NCBI GenBank assembly: GCA_030765185.1
Contig: JAVCDE010000027.1
Coordinates: 46,132-110,131 of the forward strand
Source of the DNA: Candidatus Aceula meridiana
Lineage (GTDB): Bacteria; Omnitrophota; Gorgyraeia; Zapsychrales; Aceulaceae
Reading direction: 5' to 3'
Length of the DNA: 64,000 nucleotides
Both the position numbers and the translations under genes were made by a program. Positions 2,342 through 54,386 of the stretch are shown in pieces; position 1 is the first letter of the stretch, and each line of letters starts with the position of its first letter. The notes under the pieces are model-generated. The model had not been told where the DNA came from and searched no databases. It was given only the letters and a program-made list of their open reading frames with translations.

Positions 2342-2356
2342 AACGGAGGCATTTTA

Positions 2357-3856
2357 ATGAAAAAAATAGGAAAAAAATTTTTGCTTGTGCTGTGCGTGAG
2401 TGTGTTCACTTTTTTTTCCTTAACAAATTATGGTCTATGCAACTCTCTTTCTCGTTATCATCAAAGCCTCTTTTCTGAATATTCTCAAAGAATTTCAATG
2501 GACTTTAAAGACGCTGACCTACGCAGTGTATTAAAAATCTTCTCCCAACAATCAGGATTAAACTTCATCGCTGCCACAGACGTAGCTAACATGACCATCA
2601 CACTCTACTTAGACGATGTTCCTGTTGAAGAAGCTCTTGAACGCATTCTTTATGCTAATGGGCTCATGTATGAAATTGAACCAGGAAGCGACATTTTTAT
2701 TGTTAAAAAAGTTGAGAAACCTGCACAAAATTTAATTACTCGTGTCTACCCTTTAAAACATGCTACTGTTTCTAGCTCCAAGCTTCTTACGCTTTTTGAA
2801 GATGGGGACGAGGGAAGCTCGTCTTCATCCTCCGGAGGAGAGGACGAAGAATCTAAAGAAGGTATTTTGTTTGCTATCGAAAGCATCTTAACAGTATCCG
2901 GAAAGGTTATTGAAGATTCTAGGACAAACAGTCTTATTGTTACAGATATCCCAAGCCAATTCCCATTGATTGAAAGGACAATTGCTAGTCTCGACGTTCC
3001 TATCGTCCAAGTCCTCATCGAAGTTGAAATGCTTGATATTTCCAAAAATACTGCTGAACAACTTGGAATAAAATTCGGAGATACACTGCTCTCTTTTTCC
3101 GGAGCCAAGCGTGAACACGTCTACCCCTGGGATCAGAATGCCCTTCTTGATAAAGGTTATGAATTTGACACAGAATACACATCTGGCACCATTGACGCAT
3201 CAGGCCTTACAATGATCTTACAATTTCTTAAAACAATTTCCGATACAAAATCTCTTGCAGCGCCAAAGATTTTAACGCTTAATAACCATACAGCAGAACT
3301 CAAACTTTCGACTGATGAAGCTATCGGGGTTACAACCTCAACAACAAGTTCTGAAGGAATCGCAACAGCATCTGTTGAGGCTGAAAGAGCATTAACTGGT
3401 GTTTTTCTAAATGTTACTCCGCAAATTAACCCCCAAACAGGCGAGATTATTATGTCTGTTTATCCTCGTGTCATTGAAGCAAGAACAGGGGAAACATTTG
3501 CAAGTACAACCTTCCGCGATCCTGAAGAGAGAGGAACAAAATCAATTTTAAAAACTTCTGACGGCGAAACAATTTACATCGGAGGACTCAAGAGAATTGA
3601 AGCAGTAAAAACAATCACAAAAATTCCTATTCTTGGCGATATTCCTTTTATAGGTAGCGCCTTCCGCCACAAAGGTGCAAGTGAAGAAGAACGTGAACTT
3701 GTGATTTTTATTACTCCACGCATCATAAGAGATGCGAATTCCATTCCGTCAACAGCAGCAAACACTTTCATGCGTGAACAAAACTATCCCGAACGTAAAC
3801 TTCAAGAAATCGAACGCGCCCTGTTAATCACAGAACAACGACGACGTACAAAATGA
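2357..3856 (+). CDS. pilQ: Type IV pilus / T2SS secretin (PilQ/GspD family)
   Basis: Signal peptide. N0-type secretin N domain (DADLRSVLKIFSQQSGLNFIAATDV). C-terminal secretin motif (IPILGDIPFIGSAFRHKG...ELVIFITPRII). Confidence 0.8.
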   Translation: MKKIGKKFLLVLCVSVFTFFSLTNYGLCNSLSRYHQSLFSEYSQRISMDFKDADLRSVLKIFSQQSGLNFIAATDVANMTITLYLDDVPVEEALERILYANGLMYEIEPGSDIFIVKKVEKPAQNLITRVYPLKHATVSSSKLLTLFEDGDEGSSSSSSGGEDEESKEGILFAIESILTVSGKVIEDSRTNSLIVTDIPSQFPLIERTIASLDVPIVQVLIEVEMLDISKNTAEQLGIKFGDTLLSFSGAKREHVYPWDQNALLDKGYEFDTEYTSGTIDASGLTMILQFLKTISDTKSLAAPKILTLNNHTAELKLSTDEAIGVTTSTTSSEGIATASVEAERALTGVFLNVTPQINPQTGEIIMSVYPRVIEARTGETFASTTFRDPEERGTKSILKTSDGETIYIGGLKRIEAVKTITKIPILGDIPFIGSAFRHKGASEEERELVIFITPRIIRDANSIPSTAANTFMREQNYPERKLQEIERALLITEQRRRTK

Positions 3857-5559
3857 GCCGATTACGATTAGGTGAAATCTTAGTCCAGCAAGGATTAATT
3901 AATGAAAGTCAACTGGAACAATCTATTGCTGCCCAAAAACAGCAGCGAGGTCGCATAGGCGAAGTTCTGATACGCCTAGGGTTCGTGCGTGAACTTGATA
4001 TTGTTGTTGCCCTCGCTAAACAACTCAGTGTCCCATATGTTTCCAAAGAATCAGGATTGTTAAAACCACAGTCCCCGGAAATCTTAACCCTTGTTCCTAA
4101 AGATTTTGCCCAGAAAAATTTTGTTCTTCCGCTTTCACTCAACAACAACTCTCTGACATGCGCCATTTTTGACCCCTTAGACCTTCTTTTAATTGATAAT
4201 CTGCGAAAAATTACCGGACGAGACATTAACCTAGTCCTTGCTACTAAAAAAGATATCGCCCAATCTACAGAAGAGTGGTATAGCAAAGAAGGGAAGTCAG
4301 CCCTCTCTGAGGCTGTTCAGGATACCTATGATGTCTCACCTAAGGATGAAGTCCATATTGAACGCAAACACGAGACAGAGCTTAGCATTGACAAACTTAT
4401 TGAACGAGCAGAAGAAGCTCCTGTTGTTAAACTTGTTGACCTCATTATTAGACAAGCGATTGATCAAAGAGCCAGCGATATTCACATTGAATCTTATAAA
4501 GATAAAATTTCTCTACGTTATCGCGTTGATGGCGCCTTATGCGAACTTCCACCACCGGCTCGCCATCTTCTTTTGCCAATTATCTCAAGAATTAAAATTC
4601 TGGCAAAACTCGATATTGCAGAAAAACGTCTTCCTCAAGATGGCGCAATTATTGCCAAATTGGAAGATAGAACCGTTGACCTTCGTATTTCAACAATTCC
4701 AACGGTCTGGGGCGAAAAAGTTGTTATGCGTATTCTTGACAAAGGAGCTATCGAGCTTGACATCGCGACTCTTGGCTTTGATCAAGGTCAGCTTGACTCT
4801 ATTCGTAAGGCTATAAAAGCACCTTTTGGATTAGTTTTTGTAACAGGTCCTACAGGAAGCGGAAAATCGACAACACTTTATTCATCTTTAAGCGAAATTA
4901 TCGACTCAACGAAAAATATTATGACATGCGAAGACCCTGTGGAATACCGGCTTAATGGCGTTAACCAAGTTCAAGTACGGCCAGAAATTGGCCTAACATT
5001 TGCCTCAGCTTTACGCTCATTCTTGCGACAAGACCCTGATATTATTATGGTCGGGGAGGTTCGAGATATGGAAACTGCGCAAATCTGCGTGCGTGCCGCC
5101 TTAACAGGCCATCTTGTTTTAAGCACGCTTCACACCAACGATGCGGCCTCGGCGGTTACACGCCTCATAGACATTGGAATTCCATCGTACCTTTTAACGC
5201 CATCGCTTGTTTTAGTTATTGCTCAGCGCCTAGCCCGCAAATTATGCCCACAATGCAAAGAGGCCTACGAGCCTTCCGCTGAACAACTTGGAAAAATTAA
5301 AATTAAATCAGATTTAATTTATCGTGCTAAAGGTTGCGAAAAATGTAACCATACCGGATACAAAGGACGTATGGTTGTTAGCGAGGTCCTACTCGTTGAC
5401 GATGTCATTAAAAAAATTATCGGAACAACTTCTTCTTATACAGATATTCGTGATGCTGCTCAAAAAAATGGCATGAGCACCTTATTTGAAACCGGCATTA
5501 AAAAAGTCGAGGCTGGCATAACAAGTCTTGATGAAATCTTGAGCGTAACATTAACATAA
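3853..5559 (+). CDS. pilB: Type IV pilus assembly ATPase PilB (GspE family)
   Basis: N-terminal GSPII_E N domain (LGEILVQQGLINESQLEQ). Walker A (GPTGSGKST). Asp box and tetracysteine motif (CPQC...CEKC). Start overlaps pilQ stop (ATGA). Confidence 0.9.
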   Translation: MSRLRLGEILVQQGLINESQLEQSIAAQKQQRGRIGEVLIRLGFVRELDIVVALAKQLSVPYVSKESGLLKPQSPEILTLVPKDFAQKNFVLPLSLNNNSLTCAIFDPLDLLLIDNLRKITGRDINLVLATKKDIAQSTEEWYSKEGKSALSEAVQDTYDVSPKDEVHIERKHETELSIDKLIERAEEAPVVKLVDLIIRQAIDQRASDIHIESYKDKISLRYRVDGALCELPPPARHLLLPIISRIKILAKLDIAEKRLPQDGAIIAKLEDRTVDLRISTIPTVWGEKVVMRILDKGAIELDIATLGFDQGQLDSIRKAIKAPFGLVFVTGPTGSGKSTTLYSSLSEIIDSTKNIMTCEDPVEYRLNGVNQVQVRPEIGLTFASALRSFLRQDPDIIMVGEVRDMETAQICVRAALTGHLVLSTLHTNDAASAVTRLIDIGIPSYLLTPSLVLVIAQRLARKLCPQCKEAYEPSAEQLGKIKIKSDLIYRAKGCEKCNHTGYKGRMVVSEVLLVDDVIKKIIGTTSSYTDIRDAAQKNGMSTLFETGIKKVEAGITSLDEILSVTLT

Positions 5560-5596
5560 CCTACTTATCATAAAGCCTTTTTATTAAAATCACTCT

Positions 5597-6844
5597 ATGC
5601 TTACCTTTTCATATACTGTTAAAGACGAAAATGGAAAAACCATTAAAGGAATGGCAGATGCCGTTGATAAGGAAACCCTTGTCGAACAGCTCCAGAGACA
5701 AGGATACTACATTGTCAATGTGGCCCTTCCGACAAAAGAATCTCTAGAGGCTACACCTGTACAAAAATCTAAACCTACAAAAAAATTCTCTCATAACAAA
5801 GTTGACATGTCCGACAAGTTGCTCTTTTCCAGACAACTGGCAACCATGCTTGAAGCCGGCGTTAATCTTTTGCGAAGCCTTAATGTTATTGTTGGTCAAA
5901 TCGAAAGCAAACAATTTCATAAAATTTTGACCCAAGTTCGTGACGATATCGAACAAGGTCTCTCTCTAAGCGTTGCTTTAGCAAAATATCCAAAAGTTTT
6001 CAGTACTCTTTGGGTTAGCTTAGTTGAAGTTGGTGAAGCTTCAGGGACCATGCCAATGGTTCTTGATAAACTTGCCTTTTATATTGAACGCGAAGAAAAA
6101 TTTCGCTCAGCCGTTATTTCAGGCCTTATTTATCCAGCGCTTTTATTTATTGTGGCCATTGGAGCTATTTTGGTCTTTGCCTTTGTTATCGGGCCCAAGT
6201 TTGAAGACCTCTATGGCCAATTTGACGCAGAGCTTCCTGCGCTGACAGTAGCAGTCCTTGGATTTTTTAAATTATTGACCAAACATTTTTTTCAGCTTTT
6301 AGGCGTAATATGTGTTATATTTGTATTAGCGAGAAAATATTTTAGAACACCAATCGGACAGGTGCAATTGGAAGGCTTTATCTTTATGCTTCCAGTGGCA
6401 GGTCCGGTTATTAAAACGATTGTTGTGGAGAAATTTACTTCGCAGATGTCTATTTTAATAGACACAGGTGTTCCTATTCTCTATGCGCTAGATATTGTTG
6501 AACGCATGATAGGAAACAAAACCTGCGAAGCTGTGATAAAGCAGATGAAAGAAAAGGTCCGGGAAGGAAGACTCGTCTCCGAGGAGATGTCTAAAAGTAA
6601 TTTTTTCCCTCCCATGGCCACCCAGATGATCGCTATTGGAGAAGAAACAGGCGAACTGGGAAAAATGCTAAATCACGTTGCGGAATTCTACCAACGCTTC
6701 GTAGAAACCTTCATCCACCGTTTCGCCACAATCTTCGAACCCTTTATGCTTATTTTTATGGGTGCCACTATTGGTGTTTTGGTCCTCGCCATGTTTCTGC
6801 CGATATTTGATATTTCGTCTATGGCAGGAGGAGGAGGAGGATAA
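5597..6844 (+). CDS. pilC: Type IV pilus inner-membrane platform protein PilC (GspF family)
   Basis: 415 aa with a duplicated T2SSF domain and three TM regions. Typical pilB-pilC order. Confidence 0.85.
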   Translation: MLTFSYTVKDENGKTIKGMADAVDKETLVEQLQRQGYYIVNVALPTKESLEATPVQKSKPTKKFSHNKVDMSDKLLFSRQLATMLEAGVNLLRSLNVIVGQIESKQFHKILTQVRDDIEQGLSLSVALAKYPKVFSTLWVSLVEVGEASGTMPMVLDKLAFYIEREEKFRSAVISGLIYPALLFIVAIGAILVFAFVIGPKFEDLYGQFDAELPALTVAVLGFFKLLTKHFFQLLGVICVIFVLARKYFRTPIGQVQLEGFIFMLPVAGPVIKTIVVEKFTSQMSILIDTGVPILYALDIVERMIGNKTCEAVIKQMKEKVREGRLVSEEMSKSNFFPPMATQMIAIGEETGELGKMLNHVAEFYQRFVETFIHRFATIFEPFMLIFMGATIGVLVLAMFLPIFDISSMAGGGGG

Positions 6845-6963
6845 GGCTCTTTGACAATAATGAAAGGGGGTTTAAAAAAAAGAAAAAAATTCTTGAGATT
6901 AAATAAATTACGGTATAATAATAGTATAAATTTTATAAAACCAGGTTAAATAAGGAGGAAAAA

Positions 6964-7404
6964 ATGAGAATCAAAAATACAAAAGGTTTCACGTTGCTTG
7001 AAGTTATCATCGTTGTTATCATTGTCGCAGTTTTAGCCAGTGTGGCAATGCCGAAAATATCTTCATCCATTAACTTTTCTAAGGCAAAGGAAGCTCTCGG
7101 CTTTATCTCTGCCGCGAGAACTGCAATGGAGCAATGCTATCTTATGCAAAACAACACTTACACAAACTGTGACTGCGACGCATCAACTGCAGGATCTCTT
7201 TGCGAAGATATTTTAGGTGTTTCAATGGACGGAAAATATTTTCAAAACTATGAAATTGTTGGCGCGGATGCAACCGATTACACTATCCAGGTATGGTATG
7301 GAGTTAGCAAGGCAGCAGGGAATGCCAATTGGATAAAATTTGCTACAGCAGATGACCCATCAATCACAGGCGGTGGTTATTTCTCAAAATTAGTTGCACA
7401 ATAA
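6964..7404 (+). CDS. Type IV pilin (prepilin, class III signal; candidate major pilin)
   Basis: Leader MRIKNTKG|FTLLEV with Gly at -1 and Glu at +5, then a hydrophobic alpha1 helix. C-terminal Cys pairs. Promoter-like TTGAGA-N15-TATAAT and RBS AAGGAGG upstream. Confidence 0.75.
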   Translation: MRIKNTKGFTLLEVIIVVIIVAVLASVAMPKISSSINFSKAKEALGFISAARTAMEQCYLMQNNTYTNCDCDASTAGSLCEDILGVSMDGKYFQNYEIVGADATDYTIQVWYGVSKAAGNANWIKFATADDPSITGGGYFSKLVAQ

Positions 7405-7466
7405 AATTGATAATTACTGCTTAGAGAGCAGAAAAATTAACCCAGGGGCTCTTACAGAGCCCCTGG

Positions 7467-7898
7467 TTGTTATCCGAAACTCATAAAATGAAAAAACTAA
7501 AAAATCTCTCCGCTGTTACACTTACCGAACTTATTCTTGTTGTTATCATTGTCGGGATTCTCGTAGGTTTTGGAATTCCAAAATATCAAAAAGCCATCAA
7601 ACAGGCTAAAGAAAAAAACGCCATTGTCAATTTACGCCTTATCAAAACTGCCCAAAACATTTATCGCGCTGAAGTTAAAAATTATTATCCACATCCTGCA
7701 GGGGGATTGGCAGACGCAGATATGATTAATACCAATTTAAAGCTCGGCCTTATCGAAGATGATGTCACATATACCTGCGCGAGTGGAAGTCTGACGAGTT
7801 TTACCTGCACAGCAGGTGATACTTCTGCGGGATGGCGATATGAAATTACACAAAGTTTAGACGCACCAGCATGCTCAGCGGGTGTGTGTTCCTATTAA
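7467..7898 (+). CDS. Prepilin-like (pseudopilin) protein
   Basis: N-terminus ...KNLSA|VTLTELILVVIIVGILVG has Glu at +5 but Ala rather than Gly at -1. C-terminal Cys residues. Confidence 0.6.
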   Translation: MLSETHKMKKLKNLSAVTLTELILVVIIVGILVGFGIPKYQKAIKQAKEKNAIVNLRLIKTAQNIYRAEVKNYYPHPAGGLADADMINTNLKLGLIEDDVTYTCASGSLTSFTCTAGDTSAGWRYEITQSLDAPACSAGVCSY

Positions 7899-7904
7899 AA
7901 TATC

Positions 7905-8249
7905 ATGAAGAGTAAAAACTCCTCTCAAGGTTTTTCAATCGTCGAAGTTGTTGTCTCTGCCCTTATTTTTATGATCGTGGCAGCCGGCACATTTGCCGTG
8001 TTTTCTATGGCCCGGTCAAAATCAGTAACCTCCGAAGACGAACTCACGGCAATTAATTTTGCCCGCAGATACCTGCAAAGTTTACGCCCGCTTGTGGAAC
8101 AGGGAACCCCTTTTCCTCTAGACTGTGATAATGCGTTACACGACCTTATCGATGCCGAATTAGGCGAACAAACAGGCCAATATCGCTGCGACAATACCTT
8201 AGTAGGGGGAGCACACCAGGTAACTCTAACCATATCTTGGGATGAATAA
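7905..8249 (+). CDS. Prepilin-like minor pilin (GspI/PilV-like)
   Basis: MKSKNSSQG|FSIVEVVVS prepilin motif. 114 aa. Confidence 0.65.
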   Translation: MKSKNSSQGFSIVEVVVSALIFMIVAAGTFAVFSMARSKSVTSEDELTAINFARRYLQSLRPLVEQGTPFPLDCDNALHDLIDAELGEQTGQYRCDNTLVGGAHQVTLTISWDE

Positions 8250-8252
8250 AAA

Positions 8253-8630
8253 ATGAATAGAAAAAACGCCTTAACGTTCCTTGAGTTAATTGTTGTCGTC
8301 ATTCTCGTAAGTATATTTGCGGCGTTCGGCGTTGGGCGCTATCAAAAGCTCATGACAAGCACACGTCAAAAAGATGCGATTAACAACCTTATTCTAATTA
8401 AGGCTGCACAAAAAATTTATTTTGCAAAAAATGGGGAATATCTCCCCAATGCCGGAACAGTTGCGATAGGAGAAATTAATTCAGGCTTGCATCTGTCCAT
8501 TGTTGAACCTAACAATCTCACTTATATCTGTGAAGACGATGGACCCACCAACTACAAATGCGAAGCCGAATATAGTGGCAGTCCTAACTGGACGTGTACT
8601 ATAGCAAACGATTCAAAACCATCATGCTAA
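8253..8630 (+). CDS. Prepilin-like (pseudopilin) protein
   Basis: MNRKNA|LTFLELIVVVILVS has Glu at +5 and Ala at -1. C-terminal Cys residues. Confidence 0.6.
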   Translation: MNRKNALTFLELIVVVILVSIFAAFGVGRYQKLMTSTRQKDAINNLILIKAAQKIYFAKNGEYLPNAGTVAIGEINSGLHLSIVEPNNLTYICEDDGPTNYKCEAEYSGSPNWTCTIANDSKPSC

Positions 8631-9223
8631 TACGCATAAAACACCTATTATCAAAAAACGGCTTAACCTTAACAGAACTAGTCGTTGCAACCATACTTAT
8701 GGGTGTTATTATGCTCGGCGTGGCTTCAATTGACATCGGTATCCGCAATGCCTTTGAAGGCACCACAGAAAACATCGCCGTTACCTCTGAGGTGTCTAGC
8801 ATAATGCACCACATCTCAACGAATGCTAATCAGGCAACAGGATGGGCAGGCGTCACAAGCGATCCGGATGCAGCAGGTTTTGTCCTTAGCGGGGCGTCAA
8901 AGCTATCTATTCGGGTTGATGATTCAAATCCACCTACGCCAGATGACCTGACGAAGGATAATTGGCATATTTATGATGCCGCAATAGCTGCTAATTCCAT
9001 AACTTATTGTGTGAGGCCTACCTCAAACGGAGTATGCCTAATAACAGATCAGCATCTTGGCAACGGTAGAATTTTAACGTTCACCCCGCAACTTTTAGAC
9101 ACCCAAACTCTTGTCGTAACGATTTCTGGAAGGTTTGACCCGTCTGAGCCAGGTGACGCAATCACAAACCCTGGCTACGTTCTCAGATCTGTTTTTACTT
9201 CTTCTTCAATGAGCGGAGGTTAA
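8624..9223 (+). CDS. Prepilin-like minor pilin (PilW-like)
   Basis: MLIRIKHLLSKNG|LTLTELVVATIL prepilin motif. The ATG at 8624 overlaps the upstream stop. The ORF track extends to 8594, but a leader starting at 8624 is more typical. Confidence 0.55.
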   Translation: MLIRIKHLLSKNGLTLTELVVATILMGVIMLGVASIDIGIRNAFEGTTENIAVTSEVSSIMHHISTNANQATGWAGVTSDPDAAGFVLSGASKLSIRVDDSNPPTPDDLTKDNWHIYDAAIAANSITYCVRPTSNGVCLITDQHLGNGRILTFTPQLLDTQTLVVTISGRFDPSEPGDAITNPGYVLRSVFTSSSMSGG

Positions 9224-9274
9224 TTGGAGAGGATTGATTCTTCTCAATTTGTCATTTGGTTGATTTACTTCTTT

Positions 9275-9347
9275 GGGCCGATAGTTCAGCTGGGAGAATG
9301 TCTGGTTCGCAATCAGAAGGTCGGGGGTTCAAATCCCCCTCGGTCCA
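9275..9347 (+). tRNA. tRNA-Ala (anticodon CGC)
   Basis: Manual cloverleaf fold: acceptor GGGCCGA/TCGGTCC with the G3:U70 Ala identity pair, anticodon loop TTCGCAA, T-loop TTCAAAT, discriminator A. CCA not encoded. Confidence 0.85.
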
Positions 9348-9417
9348 CTGGATGGACAAAAATCTAAAAAAGCGCTTTCTCCTATGCAGTATTTCTGAGA
9401 CTTCTTCCTCAAAATAA

Positions 9418-9426
9418 TGCTATACT
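9418..9426 (+). promoter_or_regulatory. Extended -10 promoter (TGcTATACT) for the repeat-pilin gene
   Basis: TG-n-TATACT lies 69 nt upstream of the ATG. A near-identical element sits upstream of the pilin gene at 49665. Confidence 0.4.
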
Positions 9427-9494
9427 TTAAGTAAGATATAAAATTTGGACTTATTAGATACATTTATATTATTTTATATTATAAGGAGAGTCTC

Positions 9495-10460
9495 ATGAAC
9501 GAAATAATAAACAAGAATACAAAAAGAAGTTTCGGCTTTACGCTGACTGAGGTCATCATAGCTATCAGCGTTGTTTCAGCGTTGGCTGCGATTGGTATTT
9601 CAAAATTTCCAATTCTTGTCGAAAAGGAAAGGGTAAAAGCTGTTGAGCGCGTCTTAGCAGATATGCAGGCTTCCCAACGGCGTTATTTTCAGGACACCAA
9701 AACTTATGCTAACACAAAAGAAAAACTCGATACAGAGTGGAAAAACGTAACCGGATTTGCAATATCCGTTTTAAACAATGCATCTCGCGTTGCTATGGCA
9801 GACCGCCGTCCCATCAAGGATTACGTTCTTTCTGTTGATGCAGGAGGAGGGATTACCTGCAGCGGAGAATATTGCGGTTTGCTTGCCTATAGCAATGACA
9901 CTCTAGGCGGCGGAGAGCCAGACCCCCCCGGATGCGAATTAGAATGCCCCCCATCTCTAGGGGTAAACGAAGAAAAGTGTATCTGTGAAGAGCCAGCCGG
10001 ATGCGAATTAGAATGCAAAGAACCTCTAGTGCTAAACAAAGAAAAGTGTATCTGTGAAGAAGTAGCCGGATGCGAATTAACATGCAAAGAACCTCTAGTG
10101 CTAAACAAAGAAAAGTGTATCTGTGAAGAAGTAGCCGGATGCGAGTTAGAATGCAAAGAACCTCTAGTGCTAAACAAAGAAAAGTGTATCTGTGAAGAGC
10201 CAGCCGGATGCGAATTAACATGCAAAGAACATCTAGTGTTAAACAAGGAGAAATGTATCTGTGAAGAAATTTCAGCATCTAATTGTGCGAAAGTTGAAAC
10301 TTGCAAAGAAGAAGGCTTTGTCTGGAGCAACACTGAGTGCGAATGTGTTAAGGATCCTGATGCGACCGTAGATGCCGATACGGCCGTAGATGCCGATACG
10401 GGTTGGTCTTCCTGGATAGAAAGGATAAAGAAGCTTTTTCCCAATTGGAGCCTGAGGTGA
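9495..10460 (+). CDS. Prepilin-like surface protein with C-terminal tandem 4-Cys repeats
   Basis: N-terminus MNEIINKNTKRSFG|FTLTEVIIAIS is a class III signal. The C-terminal half holds about 5 repeats of the 20-aa unit EKCICEE[PV]AGCEL[ET]CKE[PH]LVLNK. It ends in a D/A/T-rich tail (DPDATVDADTAVDADTG). RBS AAGGAGAG upstream. Confidence 0.7.
   Translation: MNEIINKNTKRSFGFTLTEVIIAISVVSALAAIGISKFPILVEKERVKAVERVLADMQASQRRYFQDTKTYANTKEKLDTEWKNVTGFAISVLNNASRVAMADRRPIKDYVLSVDAGGGITCSGEYCGLLAYSNDTLGGGEPDPPGCELECPPSLGVNEEKCICEEPAGCELECKEPLVLNKEKCICEEVAGCELTCKEPLVLNKEKCICEEVAGCELECKEPLVLNKEKCICEEPAGCELTCKEHLVLNKEKCICEEISASNCAKVETCKEEGFVWSNTECECVKDPDATVDADTAVDADTGWSSWIERIKKLFPNWSLR
9926..10268 (+). repeat. 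Tandem 60-bp in-frame coding repeats (about 5.7 copies)
   Basis: Direct reading finds near-identical 60-mers (...gaaaagtgtatctgtgaagaRSYagccggatgcgaRttaRMatgcaaagaacMtctagtgYtaaacaaa...). The first copy is degenerate. The repeats explain the long spurious minus-strand ORFs 9853..10278 and 9887..10444. Confidence 0.8.
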
Positions 10461-35531: not shown

Positions 35532-36528
35532 AATAAACATCCTAGGCATTGAAACCTCTTGCGATGAAACAGCGGCTTCGGTTATCCAGAGCGGAAAACT
35601 CATTCTTTCAAATGTTGTCGCCTCAAGCTTGCATCTGCATAAAAAATACGGAGGGATCATCCCAGAGATTGCATCACGCAAACAACTCGAGCTGATCGAC
35701 AAGGTTGTTGAACGTGCTCTGAAAAATGCAAAGCTTAAGATAAACGACATTCATGCAATAGCCGTCACAACACATCCCGGATTAGTTGGTTCGCTTCTAG
35801 TTGGAATTTCTTGGGCGCGCGCATTGTCTTACGCGCTAAAAAAACCATTAATTGAAATTGATCATATCAAGGCGCATCTTTACGCTGGGTTTCTTAAGGA
35901 TATGAAGTCAAAAACAGACACTTCCTCTCAGAGGCTTCCCGCAGTTGGCCTTGTCGCCTCAGGCGGTCATTCTAGCTTGTTTTATGTAAAATCATTTGAT
36001 AATTTTAAGCTTCTAGGACAAACACGAGATGATGCCGCCGGAGAAGCCTATGATAAAGTCGCCCGCATTCTGGGATTAGGATACCCGGGAGGCCCTGTTA
36101 TTGATCGCCTTGCGAAAAAGGGGAAAAACAAAGATATCCATTTCCCAAGAGCTGATCTTGGCCAAACGCTTGATTTTAGCTTTAGTGGATTAAAAACGGC
36201 AGTTTACTATTATGAAAAAAAATGGAAGGATAAAAAATCTTTGCCCATTAATAAAATCGCTTACGCATTTCAAGAAAGTGTTGTTCAATCGCTTGTCAAA
36301 AAAAGTATTTCAGGTTGCTTGCAAAAGAAAGTTAAAACCCTTATTGTAGGAGGAGGGGTAGCAGCCAATTCTGCCTTGCGGAAAAAGTTACAAGAAGCCG
36401 GCCAACTTCATAGAATTAAAGTTATTTTTCCAAGCCTTAATCTTTGTATGGACAATGCAGCCATGATTGCTGGCTTAGGATACCACTTCTTTATAAAAAA
36501 ACAAAAAAATAAAGGGAGGAAGCATTGA
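35509..36528 (+). CDS. tsaD: tRNA N6-adenosine threonylcarbamoyltransferase
   Basis: 339 aa Kae1/TsaD family (ILGIETSCDETAASV, VASGGHSSL, GGGVAAN). Confidence 0.88.
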   Translation: MIMPKKNKINILGIETSCDETAASVIQSGKLILSNVVASSLHLHKKYGGIIPEIASRKQLELIDKVVERALKNAKLKINDIHAIAVTTHPGLVGSLLVGISWARALSYALKKPLIEIDHIKAHLYAGFLKDMKSKTDTSSQRLPAVGLVASGGHSSLFYVKSFDNFKLLGQTRDDAAGEAYDKVARILGLGYPGGPVIDRLAKKGKNKDIHFPRADLGQTLDFSFSGLKTAVYYYEKKWKDKKSLPINKIAYAFQESVVQSLVKKSISGCLQKKVKTLIVGGGVAANSALRKKLQEAGQLHRIKVIFPSLNLCMDNAAMIAGLGYHFFIKKQKNKGRKH

Positions 36529-36968
36529 TCGAGCAAATTACCGAAACCTTAATCAAAGTTCTCTTAACTACTTTTCTATGTGGGGCGATTGGAGCAGAAA
36601 GATTTACTCGACATAAAGGAGCAGGAATGCGAACCCACATCTTAATTGGCGTCGGAGCAACGCTGCTCGTATTGACTTCTTATCATGTTTTTGATATATA
36701 TAAGGATGTTGGAGACATTGACCCGACTCGCATTATCGCCGCAATTGTAACAGGAATTGGTTTTTTATGTGCCGGAACAATTATTCGAGGAGGGGCAAAT
36801 GTTACAGGCCTCACCACAGCGGCAACTTCTTGGACTGTTGCCGGAATCGGTATTTCAGTTGGCTGTGGAAACTATATCGCTGCTATCATTGTTACTATTG
36901 TTGTTTTCTGGGTCCTTTTGGGGCTTCGGTCGGCGGAAAAGAAAATTGAAAGATTTTTTAACAGTTAA
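36525..36968 (+). CDS. MgtC/SapB family membrane protein
   Basis: 147 aa. 4-5 TM helices. MgtC signature (GAIGAERFTRHKGAGMRTHILIGVGA). Confidence 0.7.
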   Translation: MIEQITETLIKVLLTTFLCGAIGAERFTRHKGAGMRTHILIGVGATLLVLTSYHVFDIYKDVGDIDPTRIIAAIVTGIGFLCAGTIIRGGANVTGLTTAATSWTVAGIGISVGCGNYIAAIIVTIVVFWVLLGLRSAEKKIERFFNS

Positions 36969-46002: not shown

Positions 46003-47871
46003 ATGCAAATAAAACAAACACGAAAATATGAATATCTGGTGTGGTCTTGTATTGCAATCTATGCTATTGCTTTTTTCTCATGCTCAGCTTTACGTTTTTT
46101 TGCTTTTGATTATTATGATATGGATTTTGCAGTCTACGCCCAAATCATATGGAATATTTTACATGGTTCTCTAAACAGTTCCGTCTTAGGCATAAATTTT
46201 ATCGGTCATCACGTTCATCTTATTGCCTTTCCAGTGGCCCTTATATACAAAATCATTCCGCACCCCTTAACGCTTTTATTCCTTCAAACTTTAGTTCTAG
46301 CTCTAGGAGCATACCCACTATATTTGATTGGACGCCACGCGATTGGTCCACGCCTAGCATTTGCAGTAAGTGCTACATATCTACTATATCCTAGTCTAGG
46401 ATATATGAATCTTTACGAATTCCATTTTACGCCATTTGCAACCTTGGCGCTTTTTTATATGATATATTTCTTTATTGAGAGAAAATATTTATTATTTATC
46501 ATATCAACAATATCGGCTCTTATTTGCCAAGAAAATATATCTTTAGCGGTGCTTGCCTTTGGAATTTATGCATTATTTTTACGAAGATCTCCTCGATGGT
46601 GGCTTTTTTTAATGATGGCAGGGATAGCTTATTTCTTGCTATGTGCAAAAATCATTCTCCCAGCACTAAATCCTGACACAATTCAATTTATGTCAATCTA
46701 TAAACATTTAGGGGGAAGCTACGTAGAAATAATTTACAACATATTTACTCACCCTAAAGCTGTTTTTCTCTACATGAGCACTCCTGAAAAAATATACTGG
46801 CTTACTCAATTATTTGGACCATTATTTTATCTTCCCCTGGCAAGTCCAGGATACTTAATTCCATCTATTCCTTTTTTTATGCAACATCTCCTTTCTAGTC
46901 GTCCTCAAGAAATCGACATCCATCTTCATTACACAGCGGAATTAATACCTTTTATTTTCGTATCATTTATTTTCGGTATTAAGAAATTGATTTCCACTCG
47001 AATATTTTTAAAAAGAGAGCTCTCCCTGATGTGGATAATTTTAGCTTTTTCTATTTTTAATGCAGTTGCCGCAGGACCGCATTTTCGTCTATTCAAAAAA
47101 AGCTCTATTGTGCAAAATTATCATGATAATATAAAATCAAAACTCCTTCGAAAGATCCCAAAAGATGCGGCGGTCTTGGCAACATTTGAATTTATGCCTT
47201 CCTTGAGCAATAGGAAAAATTTATTCTCTTTTCATCATGTTTTAAGAGGCTACTACACTCTTTCAAATAAACCCTACAAGCTGCCAAGAAAAATTGATTA
47301 TGCTTTAATTGATTTCAACGATCCTTTGACGCTTGGATCTTTCTATTCTCCGCAACAATATAAAAACATTCAAGCTCTTATCGAAGAACAAAATTTAGTA
47401 GCTATTGAGATAAGAAATAATTTTGTTTTATTTAAAAAAGGAGGCGTCAAGGGAAAGCCTCTCTATAAAGCCTCCCAAAAAAATTCGATCTCTTCAGGAA
47501 AGAAAGGTACTATTATTGACGGCACCCTAAAACTAAATGGAATTAAAGCAATAAACAAAGGGGACACTGTCGAAGCTATTTTTGATTGGACCGCACTAGA
47601 AAAAACATCAAAGGATATCGGAATCTTTTTTAAATTTAGCGATGCCTTAGGAGATCTCGTTGACCAAACAACAAGTCAAATTTGCTACAGAATTTATCCA
47701 ACTCAGGCATGGAAAAAAGGCGAACATATTTCTGACTATAAATATCTAGTTATTCCCCCTATTCTAAAAGGAAAACCATATGATATACTCATAGGGTTCT
47801 ATGATTTTAAAACCAAAAGGATATTGAAGTCGGGAATCCCTCTCGAAATTTCAAAAGAAAGCAATTTATGA
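46003..47871 (+). CDS. DUF2079-family polytopic membrane protein (GT-C-fold glycosyltransferase-like) with a C-terminal extracytoplasmic domain
   Basis: 622 aa. About 11 TM helices in the first 390 aa. Acidic first-loop motif (FDYYDMDFAVYAQIIWNILHGS). Conserved GHHVHLIAFPVALIY...PLTLLFLQTLVLALGAYPLYLIGR block recalled for DUF2079. About 230-aa soluble C-terminal domain. Confidence 0.55.
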   Translation: MQIKQTRKYEYLVWSCIAIYAIAFFSCSALRFFAFDYYDMDFAVYAQIIWNILHGSLNSSVLGINFIGHHVHLIAFPVALIYKIIPHPLTLLFLQTLVLALGAYPLYLIGRHAIGPRLAFAVSATYLLYPSLGYMNLYEFHFTPFATLALFYMIYFFIERKYLLFIISTISALICQENISLAVLAFGIYALFLRRSPRWWLFLMMAGIAYFLLCAKIILPALNPDTIQFMSIYKHLGGSYVEIIYNIFTHPKAVFLYMSTPEKIYWLTQLFGPLFYLPLASPGYLIPSIPFFMQHLLSSRPQEIDIHLHYTAELIPFIFVSFIFGIKKLISTRIFLKRELSLMWIILAFSIFNAVAAGPHFRLFKKSSIVQNYHDNIKSKLLRKIPKDAAVLATFEFMPSLSNRKNLFSFHHVLRGYYTLSNKPYKLPRKIDYALIDFNDPLTLGSFYSPQQYKNIQALIEEQNLVAIEIRNNFVLFKKGGVKGKPLYKASQKNSISSGKKGTIIDGTLKLNGIKAINKGDTVEAIFDWTALEKTSKDIGIFFKFSDALGDLVDQTTSQICYRIYPTQAWKKGEHISDYKYLVIPPILKGKPYDILIGFYDFKTKRILKSGIPLEISKESNL

Positions 47872-49553
47872 TAAACGAAACAAAATGCCATCTGTGTGGA
47901 AGCTCCTCCTATCGAGTTAAGTACGGTTCATCTAAAACCATAAAAGACTTTACGCAAGCAGGCTATAAAATAACAGACCATTCGACAGATGGGCCCATAA
48001 GAATTATTTCTTGCCTTAGGTGTGGGTTATCCTTTCTTAATCCGAAGCTAGACAACCAAACCATTTTGGACAACTATGCCTCGATGACTGATGAAAAATA
48101 TATCGAAGAGGAGGAGGGGCGCAGAAAATCAGCTCGCTCCGTCTTAAATTATTTAAAAAAATTTAAAAACCCAGGGCGTCTCCTTGATGTAGGCTGCGCC
48201 TCAGGATTTCTTTTAGATGAAGCAAAAAAGCTAGGCTGGGAGGTCTACGGAGTAGAGCTTTCTCAGTGGGCCGCCAAATACGCCCATGGCAAATTACAAC
48301 TAAACAATGTTATTCAAGGAACTTTAAAAGAAGCGAATTTCCAGAATAATTTCTTTGACGCAGTTTTAATGATCGATGTGATTGAGCATCTTTCTAATCC
48401 AAAAGCGATGCTCTATAGAATACGACAACTTTTAAAACCTTCCGGAGTCCTATGCTGCAGCACCCCCGACATTGATAGCACTGTCAGCAAAATATTAAAA
48501 GCAAAATGGTGGGGAATAAAGCAATCCCATTTATATTATTTTAATAAATCAACACTTAGCAAACTTCTTGTTTCAACGGGATTTTTCCCAATGAAAATAC
48601 GTTCTCATGCAAGAACCTTCTCCCTAGGATACTGGTTCTCAAACCTATCTTCCTACACCTCATTCTTAAAATTTATAAATCCTTTTCTTAAAAAGAATCC
48701 AAAACTAAAATCAAGACTTTTGAGTCTCTCCCTAGGAGATCAAATCGAAATATTTGCTCGCAAAAGCCGCCAAATAAAATACCTTCCAGAGTTAGAAATG
48801 ACAGAGCCACAAGCAATAAAAGGAGAGAAGAAAAAAATTGTTGCTGTCCTTCCGGCATATAACGCAGAAGAAACTTTAAAAATAACAGTAGGCGATATCC
48901 CTAGAGATACGATAGATGATATCATCCTTGTAGACGATGCCAGTAAAGATAATACCGTTGCAATGGCTCGTCAGCTAGGGCTTCACGTCTTTCGACATAA
49001 TAAAAATAAAGGATATGGAGGAAATCAGAAAACCTGCTATCGGAAAGCTCTGGAAATGGGAGCAGATATCATAATCATGGTGCATCCTGACTACCAATAC
49101 GATCCAAAAGCTATTCCAAGGCTCATAGAGCCTTTGATAAAAGGAAAAGCTGATGCTGTTTTTGGTTCTCGAATGATGAAGGGAAGCGCCCTCGAAGGTG
49201 GCATGCCCATGTGGAAGCATAGTGCAAACATTCTATTAACAGCGCTTGAAAATGTAACGCTTGGAATATATTTAACAGAATATCATACAGGATTAAGAGC
49301 TTATAGCAAAAAATACCTAGAAAATATAAATTTTGAAGCTAACTCAAATAATTTTGTTTTTGATACAGAAATTATTGTTCAAGGTGCTTTAAAATTTATG
49401 CGTCTTGAAGAGGTTCCCATTAAAACAAGATATTTTGATGAAGCTTCGTCTATACAGCTGTGGCCCTGCATTGTCTATGGACTGGGAATATTAAAAACAC
49501 TATTGAAAGTTATTATTCATAGAACTATTTTTCGCTTTAAACAGTTTGAATAA
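47868..49553 (+). CDS. Zn-ribbon + class I SAM-dependent methyltransferase + family-2 glycosyltransferase (DPM1/GtrB-like) fusion protein
   Basis: N-terminal CxxC...CxxC. SAM motif LLDVGCASGFLLDEA...VIEHL. C-terminal GT2 (VLPAYNAEETL...VDDASKDNT...HPDYQYDP...GSRMM) with two C-terminal TM helices typical of polyprenyl-phosphate sugar synthases. Confidence 0.7.
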   Translation: MINETKCHLCGSSSYRVKYGSSKTIKDFTQAGYKITDHSTDGPIRIISCLRCGLSFLNPKLDNQTILDNYASMTDEKYIEEEEGRRKSARSVLNYLKKFKNPGRLLDVGCASGFLLDEAKKLGWEVYGVELSQWAAKYAHGKLQLNNVIQGTLKEANFQNNFFDAVLMIDVIEHLSNPKAMLYRIRQLLKPSGVLCCSTPDIDSTVSKILKAKWWGIKQSHLYYFNKSTLSKLLVSTGFFPMKIRSHARTFSLGYWFSNLSSYTSFLKFINPFLKKNPKLKSRLLSLSLGDQIEIFARKSRQIKYLPELEMTEPQAIKGEKKKIVAVLPAYNAEETLKITVGDIPRDTIDDIILVDDASKDNTVAMARQLGLHVFRHNKNKGYGGNQKTCYRKALEMGADIIIMVHPDYQYDPKAIPRLIEPLIKGKADAVFGSRMMKGSALEGGMPMWKHSANILLTALENVTLGIYLTEYHTGLRAYSKKYLENINFEANSNNFVFDTEIIVQGALKFMRLEEVPIKTRYFDEASSIQLWPCIVYGLGILKTLLKVIIHRTIFRFKQFE

Positions 49554-49621
49554 AGAAATTCTTAAAAACAACAGCAAGCACATAAACTATTTTAATATTC
49601 TTCGCGCTGAATAATAAAGAA

Positions 49622-49630
49622 TGATATACT
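49622..49630 (+). promoter_or_regulatory. Extended -10 promoter (TGaTATACT) for the pilin gene 49665
   Basis: AATGaTATACTTatatTAAGTAAA is near-identical to the element upstream of the 9495 pilin gene (AATGcTATACTTTAAGTAAG). Confidence 0.4.
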
Positions 49631-49664
49631 TATATTAAGTAAATTATTAAAGAAGGAGTGTAGA

Positions 49665-50087
49665 ATGCGTACTTTTAAAATCAAAAGTTTCCCAAAAAAA
49701 AGCGGTTTCACTCTTATGGAAGTTATCATTGTCATTATTATTGCAGGCATTCTGGCAAGCGTGGCAATCCCGAGATACAGTGGCGCAATTGAAAAATCAA
49801 GAGCAGCAGAGGGAGCTTATATTTTAGGAACTTTGTTAGGTGCTCAAGAGCGTTACAATCTTGAAAATAGTAGCTACGCAGATGATCCCGCGTTATTAGA
49901 TGTGACAATTCCAACTCCAAGGAATTTTAACGACCCGAGCGTATCCTCAAATTGCTGCAACACTGATGATACCGTATGTGCCTCGATCGTGAGAGGGGGA
50001 GCATTATATACACTCAGTATACAATGCGATGGTGATATTGTATGCCTGAATGCTGAGGTTGGAGCTTGTGGAAGTGCTGGATACTAA
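49665..50087 (+). CDS. Type IV pilin-like protein (prepilin) with a Cys-rich C-terminal domain
   Basis: MRTFKIKSFPKKSG|FTLMEVIIVIIIAGILASVAIP is a class III signal. 8 Cys in the C-terminal 50 aa. RBS AAGAAGGAG. Confidence 0.7.
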   Translation: MRTFKIKSFPKKSGFTLMEVIIVIIIAGILASVAIPRYSGAIEKSRAAEGAYILGTLLGAQERYNLENSSYADDPALLDVTIPTPRNFNDPSVSSNCCNTDDTVCASIVRGGALYTLSIQCDGDIVCLNAEVGACGSAGY

Positions 50088-50102: not shown

Positions 50103-50141
50103 AAAAAAGGCTCTTTGGGTTTTCCCAAAGAGCCTTTTTTT
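50103..50141. terminator. Bidirectional Rho-independent terminator between the convergent pilin and pfk genes
   Basis: AAAAAAGGCTCTTTGGG-tttt-CCCAAAGAGCCTTTTTTT is a perfect 11-bp stem flanked by A- and T-tracts. Confidence 0.7.
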
Positions 50142-51649: not shown

Positions 51650-51725
<76 letters not shown>

Positions 51726-51738
51726 TTGTAAATAATAC

Positions 51739-51824
51739 GGGCAGATACTCAAGCGGTCAACGAGGGCAGACTGTAAATCTGCTGGTTTCGGCCTACGAGG
51801 GTTCGAATCCTTCTCTGCCCACCA
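51739..51824 (+). tRNA. tRNA-Tyr (anticodon GUA), class II with a long variable arm
   Basis: Acceptor GGGCAGA/TCTGCCC. Anticodon arm GCAGA-CTGTAAA-TCTGC is identical to E. coli tRNA-Tyr. 14-nt variable arm, T-loop TTCGAAT, encoded CCA. Confidence 0.85.
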
Positions 51825-51827
51825 TTT

Positions 51828-51901
51828 GCGAGAGTAGTTCAGTGGTAGAACACAAGCCTTCCAAGCTTGTTACGAGGGTTCGATTCCCTTCTCTCGCTCC
51901 A
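51828..51901 (+). tRNA. tRNA-Gly (anticodon UCC)
   Basis: Acceptor GCGAGAG/CTCTCGC. Anticodon arm CAAGC-CTTCCAA-GCTTG. 4-nt variable loop. U73 discriminator, typical of Gly. Encoded CCA. Confidence 0.85.
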
Positions 51902-51925: not shown

Positions 51926-52630
51926 ATGAAAGTTACCCTTCTTATTCCTACACTCAACGAAGAAGAAGGCATGAAAGCTATCATGCCTCGCATCAAGCCG
52001 GAATGGTACGATCAGCTCTTAATCGTTGACGGTCAGTCAACTGATGGAACTGTTGAATACTCAAAATCCCAAGGATACCCTGTCATCATCCAAAAGAAAA
52101 AAGGATTACGCGAAGCCTATAATGAAGCCTTGCCGCATATTGAAGGCGACGTTGTCTTAACTTTTAGCCCTGATGGAAACAGCATTCCTGAGCTCATCCC
52201 TGATTGCATCAACAAAATGAAAGAGGGCTACGACATGGTTATTGTTTCGCGCTATGCCAAAGGCGCCAAAAGCTATGATGATGATATGGTCACAGCGTTT
52301 GGAAACAAGCTGTTTACAACTTTTATCAACCTTTTTCACGGGGGTCACTATACAGATGCCATGGTTATGTTCCGTGCCTACAAAACACAACTGATTTACG
52401 ATTTAGATCTCGATAAAGATGAAAGCTACGCGTTTGAAGAAAAACTTTTTGGAACAAATGTCAGCTGGGAACCCTTAATATCTATCCGTGCCGCCAAACG
52501 TAAGCTAAAACTTGCCGATATTCCTGGAGATGAGCCTGCTAGAGAAGGAGGCGAGCGTAAACTTCAAATTATACGCTGGGGTGCGGCCTACATGTGGGAA
52601 GTCTTCCGCGAAATTTTTGTCTGGAAATAG
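51926..52630 (+). CDS. Family-2 glycosyltransferase (DPM1-like, soluble)
   Basis: ATG at 51926 with an AAAGGAG RBS. GT2 motifs (LLIPTLNEEEG, LIVDGQSTDGT, VIVSRY). The track ORF start at 51842 runs through the tRNA-Gly gene and is not credible. Confidence 0.7.
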   Translation: MKVTLLIPTLNEEEGMKAIMPRIKPEWYDQLLIVDGQSTDGTVEYSKSQGYPVIIQKKKGLREAYNEALPHIEGDVVLTFSPDGNSIPELIPDCINKMKEGYDMVIVSRYAKGAKSYDDDMVTAFGNKLFTTFINLFHGGHYTDAMVMFRAYKTQLIYDLDLDKDESYAFEEKLFGTNVSWEPLISIRAAKRKLKLADIPGDEPAREGGERKLQIIRWGAAYMWEVFREIFVWK

Positions 52631-54005: not shown

Positions 54006-54386
54006 ATGAAGGAGTTCATAATGGATCGTCCCGAAGAACGACGAAAGCATCTGCGCGTATCAAAACATTTTATCGTAACCTACTATGACGCTAACATCGC
54101 TGATGCTCAGCATAATGTTTCCCAGCTTAAAGATATCAGCCAAGGAGGGGTTTGCTTCTCAAGCTGCGCTGGGTTTCCAAAAAATAGCTTATTGCAAATT
54201 CTTATTAAAACTCCTTATCTTGCCGAAACTCTAAGCATAAAGGGTATTGTCGTTGACTGCGCTGAAAAGATTCCTGAAGTTATTTATGAAATACATGTTC
54301 AGCTTGAAGGTCTCACTCCGGAAACAGAGCTTATTCTAAAAAAGATTGAAAAGAATTTTATCGAATCTCAGCGAAATCAATATTAA
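54006..54386 (+). CDS. Stand-alone PilZ-domain (c-di-GMP-binding) protein
   Basis: 126 aa. R-x3-R (RRKHLRV) and D-x-S-x-GG (KDISQGGVCF) PilZ signatures. Confidence 0.6.
   Translation: MKEFIMDRPEERRKHLRVSKHFIVTYYDANIADAQHNVSQLKDISQGGVCFSSCAGFPKNSLLQILIKTPYLAETLSIKGIVVDCAEKIPEVIYEIHVQLEGLTPETELILKKIEKNFIESQRNQY

Follow-up and report, generated by a model that had tools for sequence, protein, structure and literature searches.

A conserved gene pair of DUF2079 and a methyltransferase-glycosyltransferase fusion in Omnitrophota, plausibly a periplasmic glycosylation module

The gene pair and its conservation

The window analysed here is a 64-kb stretch of a metagenome-assembled genome of the Omnitrophota bacterium Candidatus Aceula meridiana. 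Two overlapping genes within it encode a polytopic membrane protein of the DUF2079 family and a fusion protein in which a Zn-ribbon and an S-adenosylmethionine (SAM)-dependent methyltransferase precede a family 2 glycosyltransferase (GT2); database entries are 100% identical to both proteins. A first-pass annotation of the window had read this pair, together with the pilin-like gene that follows it, as a candidate lipid-linked-sugar glycosylation module, and the three plus-strand open reading frames (ORFs), the first two overlapping by 4 bp, all lie where it placed them. The Pfam comparison that it proposed recovered PF09852 in the first protein and PF00535 with Methyltransf_23 and Methyltransf_11 in the second. 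A role of the pair in periplasmic glycosylation is plausible, and the folds of the two proteins are as expected for their Pfam families. The features of the locus are as follows.

46003..47871, plus strand: DUF2079 polytopic membrane protein of 622 aa with the fold of a GT-C glycosyltransferase; transmembrane (TM) module at residues ~1-360, predicted periplasmic C-terminal domain at ~362-622
46108..46125, plus strand: acidic motif D36-Y-Y-D39-M-D41 in the first loop after TM1 of DUF2079, a candidate catalytic or metal-binding site
47464..47841, plus strand: C-terminal beta-sandwich of DUF2079, residues ~488-613, with an aromatic patch of W529, Y562, P566 and W570
47868..47871, plus strand: ATGA start/stop overlap of the DUF2079 and fusion genes, reading ...ttATGAtaa..., a sign of translational coupling
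47868..49553, plus strand: Zn-ribbon, SAM-methyltransferase and GT2 fusion protein of 561 aa, from the ORF and Pfam
47868..48038, plus strand: four-Cys Zn-ribbon at the N-terminus of the fusion, C7-x2-C10 ... C49-x2-C52, from the invariant Cys
48054..48767, plus strand: class I SAM-dependent methyltransferase domain, fusion residues ~63-300, from Pfam, PDB and Foldseek
48837..49427, plus strand: GT2 domain of GT-A fold, fusion residues ~324-520, closest to the DPM1/AglJ/PpgS/ArnC type, from Pfam PF00535; a proposed polyprenyl-phosphate sugar synthase
49458..49526, plus strand: amphipathic C-terminal helix of the fusion, residues 531-553, a probable membrane-interface anchor
49665..50087, plus strand: type IV pilin- or pseudopilin-like orphan gene of 140 aa with six Cys, from its N_methyl motif

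Conservation of the pair was followed across 73 loci, with one genome taken per species, and pair counts refer to those 40 ortholog-type loci in which the downstream sequence spans 1.8 kb or more. The methyltransferase-GT2 lies downstream of DUF2079 in 34 of these 40 (28 fused, two split and four partial or divergent), and the two genes overlap or abut in 28 of the 34, with gaps of -103 to +21 bp. Where the methyltransferase and the GT2 are separate genes (L032 and L034) they still lie beside DUF2079, so the three activities remain together. The pair occurs in two unrelated gene contexts. Context A runs DapF-DapA-DapB-aminotransferase-PanC-AspDH, then the pair, then UvrA, and context B, to which the window belongs, runs FtsH-FolP-CdaA-PdxJ-AcpS-NnrD, then the pair, and further on PFK and RecN on the minus strand. 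The persistence of the two genes together in changed surroundings, along with their start/stop overlap, is good evidence that they are functionally coupled, and the fact that they stand in two different housekeeping settings speaks for a general role in the envelope. The pair is most likely a dedicated, vertically inherited envelope-glycosylation module of the Omnitrophota. A preprint on complete Omnitrophota genomes (10.64898/2026.06.07.730766) makes no mention of the module. The GC content at 46-48 kb is low, at 0.346 vs ~0.40. Horizontal transfer was considered as an explanation and rejected, since the pair stands in conserved synteny and the membrane-protein gene is rich in AT codons.

Folds and domains of the two proteins

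The assignment of the first protein to DUF2079 is secure: PF09852 scores 195.4 bits against a cutoff of 28.2, and residues 39-444 cover profile positions 9-423 of 459. An AlphaFold (AF2) model built on the ortholog alignment has a predicted local distance difference test score (pLDDT) of 92.5 and a predicted template modelling score (pTM) of 0.90, and in structure comparison its polytopic N-terminal membrane module superimposes on solved GT-C enzymes. All of the first 21 Foldseek matches of the model are GT-C enzymes, the best being the oligosaccharyltransferases AglB, STT3 and PglB. Alignment of profile hidden Markov models (HMMs) with hhalign matches DUF2079 to PMT_2-type enzymes with a probability of 99.6% and an E-value of 1.1e-24 over 542 columns at ~15% identity, the target alignment comprising 18 bacterial GT-Cs, 15 with a match to Pfam PMT_2. 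A sequence-profile search against PDB chains gave no matches even at an E-value of 10, and the GT-C link is thus visible only by structure and by HMM-HMM comparison. Structure and profile strongly support DUF2079 as a GT-C-fold enzyme, and the GT-C similarity that the first-pass annotation anticipated was found by Foldseek, in the AF2 model and by hhalign alike. In Pfam the protein has no match to PF02366 or PF13231, and neither it nor the fusion protein carries a Wzy_C or PglL-type domain. The literature searched, about 8 million full texts, does not mention DUF2079, and PF09852 appears there only in an unrelated membrane-motif study.

The acidic FDYYDMD segment expected in loop 1 is present. 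Residue conservation was assessed in 36 orthologs of 34-73% identity, across which D39 and D41 are invariant and H70, E139, H141, E177, N178 and Y310 are likewise shared. Loop 1 of PMT_2-type enzymes carries a D-E pair, whose Asp is the hhalign counterpart of the invariant loop-1 Asp of DUF2079. The N-terminus is positively charged (3 K/R in 11 residues), and from this and the known GT-C structures we infer that loop 1 would be periplasmic. A lipid-phosphate-linked sugar is a putative donor, for which the conserved DPM1-like GT2 next door is indirect support.

In the confident AF2 model, residues ~362-622 of DUF2079 are a soluble domain, part alpha/beta and part beta-sandwich, in keeping with the large soluble C-terminal domain described earlier. 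Scanned against Pfam at an E-value of 10, this C-terminal domain gave nothing meaningful, and the beta-sandwich has no Pfam model. An exhaustive search located the beta-sandwich in 1573 cluster representatives. It lies C-terminally in PMT_2/PMT, TMEM260-like, YfhO and PTPS_related proteins, often with 2-3 copies in tandem, and LxGY, W..L, D..G, YPT..W..GE and G.Y belong to its consensus. It is an accessory periplasmic module common to several bacterial GT-C families, and in DUF2079, where the aromatic patch W529, Y562, P566 and W570 is conserved among orthologs, it probably helps to bind the acceptor. Its likeness to carbohydrate-binding folds (Pfam Wzt_C at 1.5e-4 in two of 18 relatives; GH2 sugar-binding domains) and to lipid-binding folds (NPC2/ML, RhoGDI, PDE6D and UNC119) is equally weak.

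The model of the fusion protein (pLDDT 85.6) comprises the Zn-ribbon (1-57), the methyltransferase (63-300), a flexible linker (313-318), the GT-A domain (324-520) and the C-terminal helix (531-553). Pfam identifies the GT2 domain as Glycos_transf_2 (PF00535; 82 bits, 7.9e-23). Compared with 18,950 curated NCBIfam models, it best matches AglJ (2e-24, 86.5 bits), PpgS (2.9e-20, 72.7 bits) and a haloarchaeal dolichyl-phosphate hexose transferase (3.1e-18, 65.5 bits), followed by GpgS (1.9e-10) and ArnC (4.2e-7). By sequence, its best PDB matches are the Pyrococcus dolichyl-phosphate mannose synthase (PfDPMS, 5mlz; 2e-11) and ArnC (3e-6). Its segment HPDYQYDP, opposite DADLQHPP of DPMS in the alignment, keeps D408, Q410 and P413 of the D-x-Q-x-x-P motif; an ArnC-like LRAY segment is kept as well. 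By sequence, the closest curated families and solved structures of this GT2 are polyprenyl-phosphate sugar synthases, in line with the DPM1/GtrB/ArnC-like character attributed to it, but all NCBIfam scores lie far below the curated cutoffs, and the C-terminal TM helices described with it are absent. As to whether it groups instead with soluble transferases, it does not do so by sequence, where AglJ and DPMS lead, and it is ambiguous by structure, where GpgS appears.

Helix 531-553 is the only hydrophobic segment of the fusion protein. Its hydrophobic moment is 0.35-0.49 in 12 orthologs vs 0.05 for the true TM helices of this locus, and Lys residues at positions i and i+4 are conserved, on which grounds it is read as an amphipathic interface helix. 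Such a helix is compatible with a monotopic enzyme and is not the GtrB/ArnC architecture. TM helices are present in GtrB, ArnC and archaeal DPMS and absent in PpgS and human DPM1, both of which are TM-less polyprenyl-phosphate sugar synthases that feed GT-C enzymes.

The N-terminal half of the fusion was correctly recognised in the first-pass annotation as a Zn-ribbon and a SAM-methyltransferase. The four Zn-ribbon Cys (C7, C10, C49 and C52) do not vary among 36 orthologs, the methyltransferase matches Methyltransf_23 (91 bits, 7.8e-26) and also Methyltransf_11/12/25/31, and its invariant residues G109, G113, D117, D170, E173, H174 and H221 include the SAM-binding motif. Foldseek ranks MtmC, KijD1 and TcaB9 highest for the whole fusion (E-values of 4e-14 to 1e-11), and a profile of residues 1-312 matches MtmC (9.8e-8) and TcaB9 (1.7e-6) from the Zn-ribbon through the methyltransferase core. 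These three enzymes are C3-methyltransferases of deoxythymidine diphosphate (dTDP)-4-keto-6-deoxyhexoses and start with a four-Cys Zn-ribbon. Both CxxC pairs of the fusion align with the Zn-ribbon of MtmC, and the invariant H174 and H221 fall on His residues of MtmC, which we take to correspond to H181 and H225 of TcaB9. The fusion thus resembles TcaB9, KijD1 and MtmC in having a four-Cys Zn-ribbon followed by a class I SAM-methyltransferase, in register over ~240 residues, and differs from them in that a GT2 replaces the C-terminal domain that binds the nucleoside diphosphate (NDP)-sugar and that Lys and Ser stand at the Tyr and Glu of the YHEHL motif. The Zn-binding and C-terminal domain models of NDP-hexose C3-methyltransferases have no Pfam match in the fusion, and the Zn-ribbon and the C-terminal lid of the methyltransferase, scanned against Pfam at an E-value of 10, gave nothing meaningful. 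The fusion methyltransferase is an architectural relative of the NDP-hexose C3-methyltransferases and not a member of that family, and a sugar is a plausible substrate.

The methyltransferase could also have no connection with sugars, acting instead on a lipid, a quinone-like molecule or a protein, or serving as a non-catalytic regulatory or Zn-binding module, so that the sugar would stay unmethylated; this explanation overlaps with the pathway preferred below. The generic character of its best matches (3cc8, UbiG-like and phosphoethanolamine methyltransferases) and the loss of the YHEHL Tyr and Glu fit such a role. The invariance of the SAM-binding motif and of many other methyltransferase residues, the retention of the methyltransferase beside the GT2 even as a separate gene (L032, L034) and the end-to-end alignment of Zn-ribbon and methyltransferase with sugar C-methyltransferases speak against it, and it is considered distinctly unlikely.

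Neighbouring genes and the question of the acceptor

The Cys-rich pilin-like gene reported downstream of the fusion is present, with six Cys, 111 bp 3′ of the fusion gene on the same strand. Its product matches Pfam N_methyl (2.2e-7) and the N-terminal region of NCBIfam GspG (3.4e-11, below cutoff). No terminator-like site was found between the fusion and pilin genes (49553-49665), and the pilin may well be co-transcribed with the pair in Aceula meridiana. It is an orphan, the pilus machinery and six other pilins lying 36-46 kb upstream. As claimed earlier, the window holds seven pilin-like genes; six are within a cluster resembling type IV pilus and type II secretion system (T4P/T2SS) loci, at 6964-10460, and start at 6964, 7467, 7905, 8253, 8594 and 9495. 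The cluster as a whole (333-10460, plus strand) encodes PilN-like and PilO-like proteins, a secretin, a T2SSE ATPase, a T2SSF platform protein and the six pilin-like proteins.

The link between pilin and pair, in contrast, did not hold up. None of the 73 species-level loci has a pilin-like gene beside the pair, as judged by phmmer with the window pilin and by a prepilin-motif scan of imperfect sensitivity (5 of the 7 window pilins recovered by hand inspection). In other loci the genes directly after the pair could be assigned positively, to RmlA, UvrA, PFK or a TPR membrane protein, and the nearest pilin-like genes lie 4.5-7 kb from the pair in L020, L021, L024 and L029. Prepilin-motif matches at about -380 bp in L046, L047 and L053 were discarded as false positives inside the DUF2079 ORF. 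A pilin is kept in this slot only in the closest relatives (L074-L076), in which the fusion is 86% and DUF2079 73% identical; the pilin ortholog, at 59% identity, falls below both neighbours. The fusion directly abuts a convergent PFK gene in L001 and L010, and RmlA-RmlD occupy the slot in a relative at 50% identity.

These observations bear on the proposal that type IV pilin-like proteins, the downstream pilin among them, are the specific targets to which DUF2079 transfers a lipid-linked and possibly methylated sugar, by analogy with TfpW and PglL/TfpO. In P. aeruginosa Pa5196 the GT-C arabinosyltransferase TfpW is encoded beside pilA; PglL/TfpO are pilin O-oligosaccharyltransferases. The likeness to TfpW lies in a GT-C-like membrane glycosyltransferase gene near a pilin gene in Aceula meridiana, and the proposal draws on the same-strand pilin after 111 bp with no terminator-like site before it and a strong one after it, on the arrangement kept in L074-L076 and on the seven pilin-like proteins of the window. 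Set against this are the absence of an adjoining pilin from all 73 loci, the PFK and RmlA-RmlD genes found in its place, its lower conservation than that of its neighbours, and the distance of the pilus machinery and the six other pilins. Unlike in TfpW and PglL/TfpO, the adjacency is limited to near relatives, and the Wzy_C domain of PglL/TfpO is absent. The pilin became a neighbour of the pair only recently and within this lineage; pilins as target are unsupported, and this proposal is very improbable.

Genes for dTDP-L-rhamnose synthesis flank the pair in nine relatives (L003, L008, L010, L014, L019, L030, L033, L044 and L077). RmlA (438 bits), RmlC (216) and RmlD (255) all score above curated cutoffs and are accompanied by a 4,6-dehydratase-like gene; rml genes are absent from the context-A loci. 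These neighbours may hint at the sugar or at the acceptor. Tandem or nearby DUF2079 paralogs occur in L008, L010, L019, L029 and L013, with one fused ORF of 1068 aa in L019, and a TPR-bearing protein with 10 TM segments follows the methyltransferase-GT2 in seven loci. The DUF2079 paralogs and TPR proteins beside the pair suggest that several membrane transferases share one donor synthase. A PMT_2-like protein also adjoins the pair in some relatives. Directly upstream of DUF2079 in L074 (2595-4478) and L077 (572-2386) lies a family of 604-627 aa with 11 TM segments and no Pfam match, the two members being 28% identical; it could be a further GT-C-like enzyme or the missing transporter. By tblastn, the TPR-bearing GT-C, the 11-TM family and the other neighbour families of the relatives are all absent from the window. 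Clustering of the neighbours in the 73 loci gave no recurrent flippase-like cluster, and the only small polytopic ORF in the window (36525-36968) is MgtC-like by eye.

Two further features lie beyond the pilin gene.

50103..50140, no strand assigned: intrinsic-terminator-like hairpin with a 17-bp stem between A and T runs, separating the pilin gene from the convergent PFK gene
51926..52630, plus strand: second small DPM1/ArnC/GtrB-like GT2 of 234 aa without a hydrophobic segment (PF00535, 3.4e-15)

The hairpin is strong, likely marks the end of the transcription unit and could stop transcription in both directions. The second GT2 lies 1.8 kb beyond the module, and its ortholog is ~5.5 kb from the pair in L001. 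Its true start is probably the ATG at 51926, since the listed start at 51842 overlaps tRNA-Gly (51828-51901). It matches NCBIfam AglJ at 1.8e-27, below cutoff, and in the PDB 5mlz (3e-12), ArnC (9.5e-9) and GtrB sll0501 (1e-4). Its identity with the fusion GT2 domain is 25%, it has 'SPD' in place of DAD, and it is a possible alternative donor synthase, albeit one that does not adjoin the pair. A tight tRNA cluster (Thr-Tyr-Gly, 51650-51901) stands between PFK and this gene, and a small stand-alone PilZ-domain protein is encoded at 54006-54386 on the plus strand (Pfam PF07238, 1.7e-7).

A possible glycosylation pathway and its relatives

In the pathway that we consider somewhat more likely than not, the module would produce a sugar on a lipid carrier, possibly methylated, on the cytoplasmic side and join it to an envelope acceptor outside the membrane. 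By homology, the fusion would first act at the surface of the cytoplasmic membrane, where its GT-A domain would load polyprenyl phosphate with the sugar of a nucleotide sugar. The fused Zn-ribbon methyltransferase may methylate the sugar, either as nucleotide sugar before transfer or as lipid-linked sugar afterwards; this is the weakest step, and the production of a methylated lipid-linked sugar is, on its own, a tentative proposition. A transporter encoded elsewhere in the genome would then flip the lipid-linked sugar, and DUF2079 would transfer it to a periplasmic acceptor through the D-x-D of loop 1. The housekeeping syntenies, the rml and GT-C-like neighbours and the lack of pilins elsewhere point to a general envelope glycan or glycoconjugate as this acceptor.

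Several observations weigh against this pathway. DUF2079 has no characterised member in the literature searched. The fusion is missing beside DUF2079 in six of the 40 ortholog loci, and among distant DUF2079 loci (Eisenbacteria and others) the methyltransferase-GT2 is found in only one of 19 and absent from 18. The GT2 domain reaches the curated cutoff of no named polyprenyl-phosphate glycosyltransferase family (cutoffs of 325-375 for the three best; PpgS, 73 vs 370 bits), the first aspartate of its DxD is replaced by an invariant His (H406), and its GT-A neighbours within the 50 Foldseek matches listed for the fusion are the soluble GpgS and not DPMS. For the methyltransferase, the generic enzyme 3cc8 is the best PDB match (1.6e-21) and outscores the sugar methyltransferases, and K218 and S220 stand at the Tyr and Glu of the MtmC motif YHEHL, presumably Y222 and E224 in TcaB9 numbering. 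By tblastn with the relatives' neighbours, the window contains no rml genes. A hydropathy search of the 64-kb window gave no flippase candidate and no GtrA-like small polytopic ORF, nor any small polytopic ORF near the pair, which agrees with the first-pass annotation.

Part of this evidence would also suit a different role for the fusion, as a cytoplasmic enzyme that builds and caps a rhamnose-containing polysaccharide on undecaprenyl diphosphate, with DUF2079 either using this lipid-PP-glycan as an oligosaccharyltransferase, ligase or polymerase, or acting independently. WsaE of Geobacillus is a methyltransferase-glycosyltransferase of this kind, WbdD/WbdA follow a similar logic, and Wzt_C modules read methylated glycan termini. 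Such a role is in line with the dTDP-rhamnose genes adjoining the pair in nine loci, with AglB, STT3 and PglB as the best Foldseek matches of DUF2079, with the weak Wzt_C-like signal in the beta-sandwich, and with a GT2 that lacks TM helices and falls below the polyprenyl-phosphate family cutoffs. It is opposed by the three best of the 18,950 NCBIfam models, all of which are lipid-phosphate sugar synthases, by the lack of any rhamnosyltransferase among the 25 NCBIfam families listed for the GT2, by the retained D-x-Q-x-x-P motif and LRAY segment, and by the absence of rml genes from the window and from the context-A loci. This build-and-cap role is unlikely, and synthesis of a lipid-phosphate-linked sugar for transfer by DUF2079 is preferred.

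The preferred pathway has its closest counterpart in Gtr-type three-component systems, which consist of the flippase GtrA, the undecaprenyl-phosphate-glucose synthase GtrB and a serotype-specific GT-C enzyme (PMC11127046). As in Gtr systems, a GT2, here one that by sequence is nearest to the DPM1/GtrB/ArnC kind, shares an operon with a GT-C-fold enzyme that has an acidic first external loop, and the synthase and GT-C genes are co-located and co-inherited (ATGA overlap; 34 of 40 loci in two syntenies). Unlike in Gtr systems, the Omnitrophota locus has no GtrA, SMR or MATE flippase gene, its GT-C comes from the uncharacterised DUF2079 family, and the pair is core and vertically inherited rather than a phage- or serotype-associated accessory. 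Whereas GtrB has two TM helices, the Omnitrophota GT2 has one amphipathic helix and is fused to a Zn-ribbon methyltransferase. In the mycobacterial pairs PpgS (Rv3631)/Rv3779 and MtxS/MtxT, a TM-less or small DPM1-like synthase works with a GT-C enzyme that decorates cell-wall polysaccharide. The likeness to these pairs is that a small TM-less GT2 would feed a GT-C, and in both of them the acceptor is an envelope glycan. The MTX case is mentioned in PMC11127046. The differences from the PpgS pair are the score (73 vs a 370-bit cutoff), the extra methyltransferase domain, the other GT-C family and the other phylum. From PMT_2, GT39 and protein O-mannosyltransferases, DUF2079 differs in matching PF09852 and not PF02366 or PF13231, in having no MIR or TPR domain and in its ~15% identity.

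A bolder reading, possible but doubtful, is that one polypeptide couples SAM-dependent sugar methylation to polyprenyl-phosphate transfer and that DUF2079, as a new GT-C family, installs the sugar on a phylum-wide glycoconjugate. The MtmC/TcaB9-like methyltransferase and the rml neighbours suggest that the sugar would perhaps be a methyl-hexose or methyl-6-deoxyhexose. If true, periplasmic or surface glycans would receive methylated sugars after export by a route not described before, and the methyltransferase-GT2 fusion would add a new way to modified lipid-linked sugars among the two- and three-component periplasmic glycosylation systems. Two leads are real and testable, the conserved fusion of methyltransferase and synthase and the common beta-sandwich, and the latter, which has no Pfam model, could be defined as a new domain family. 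For DUF2079 there are now a fold predicted with confidence, a motif that is a candidate for catalysis and a conserved partner that would be its donor synthase, which makes a directly testable enzyme pair. Little is known about the surface chemistry of the Omnitrophota, uncultured and ultra-small bacteria that often depend on a host, and a phylum-wide glycosylation module embedded among housekeeping genes would offer a concrete handle on their envelope.

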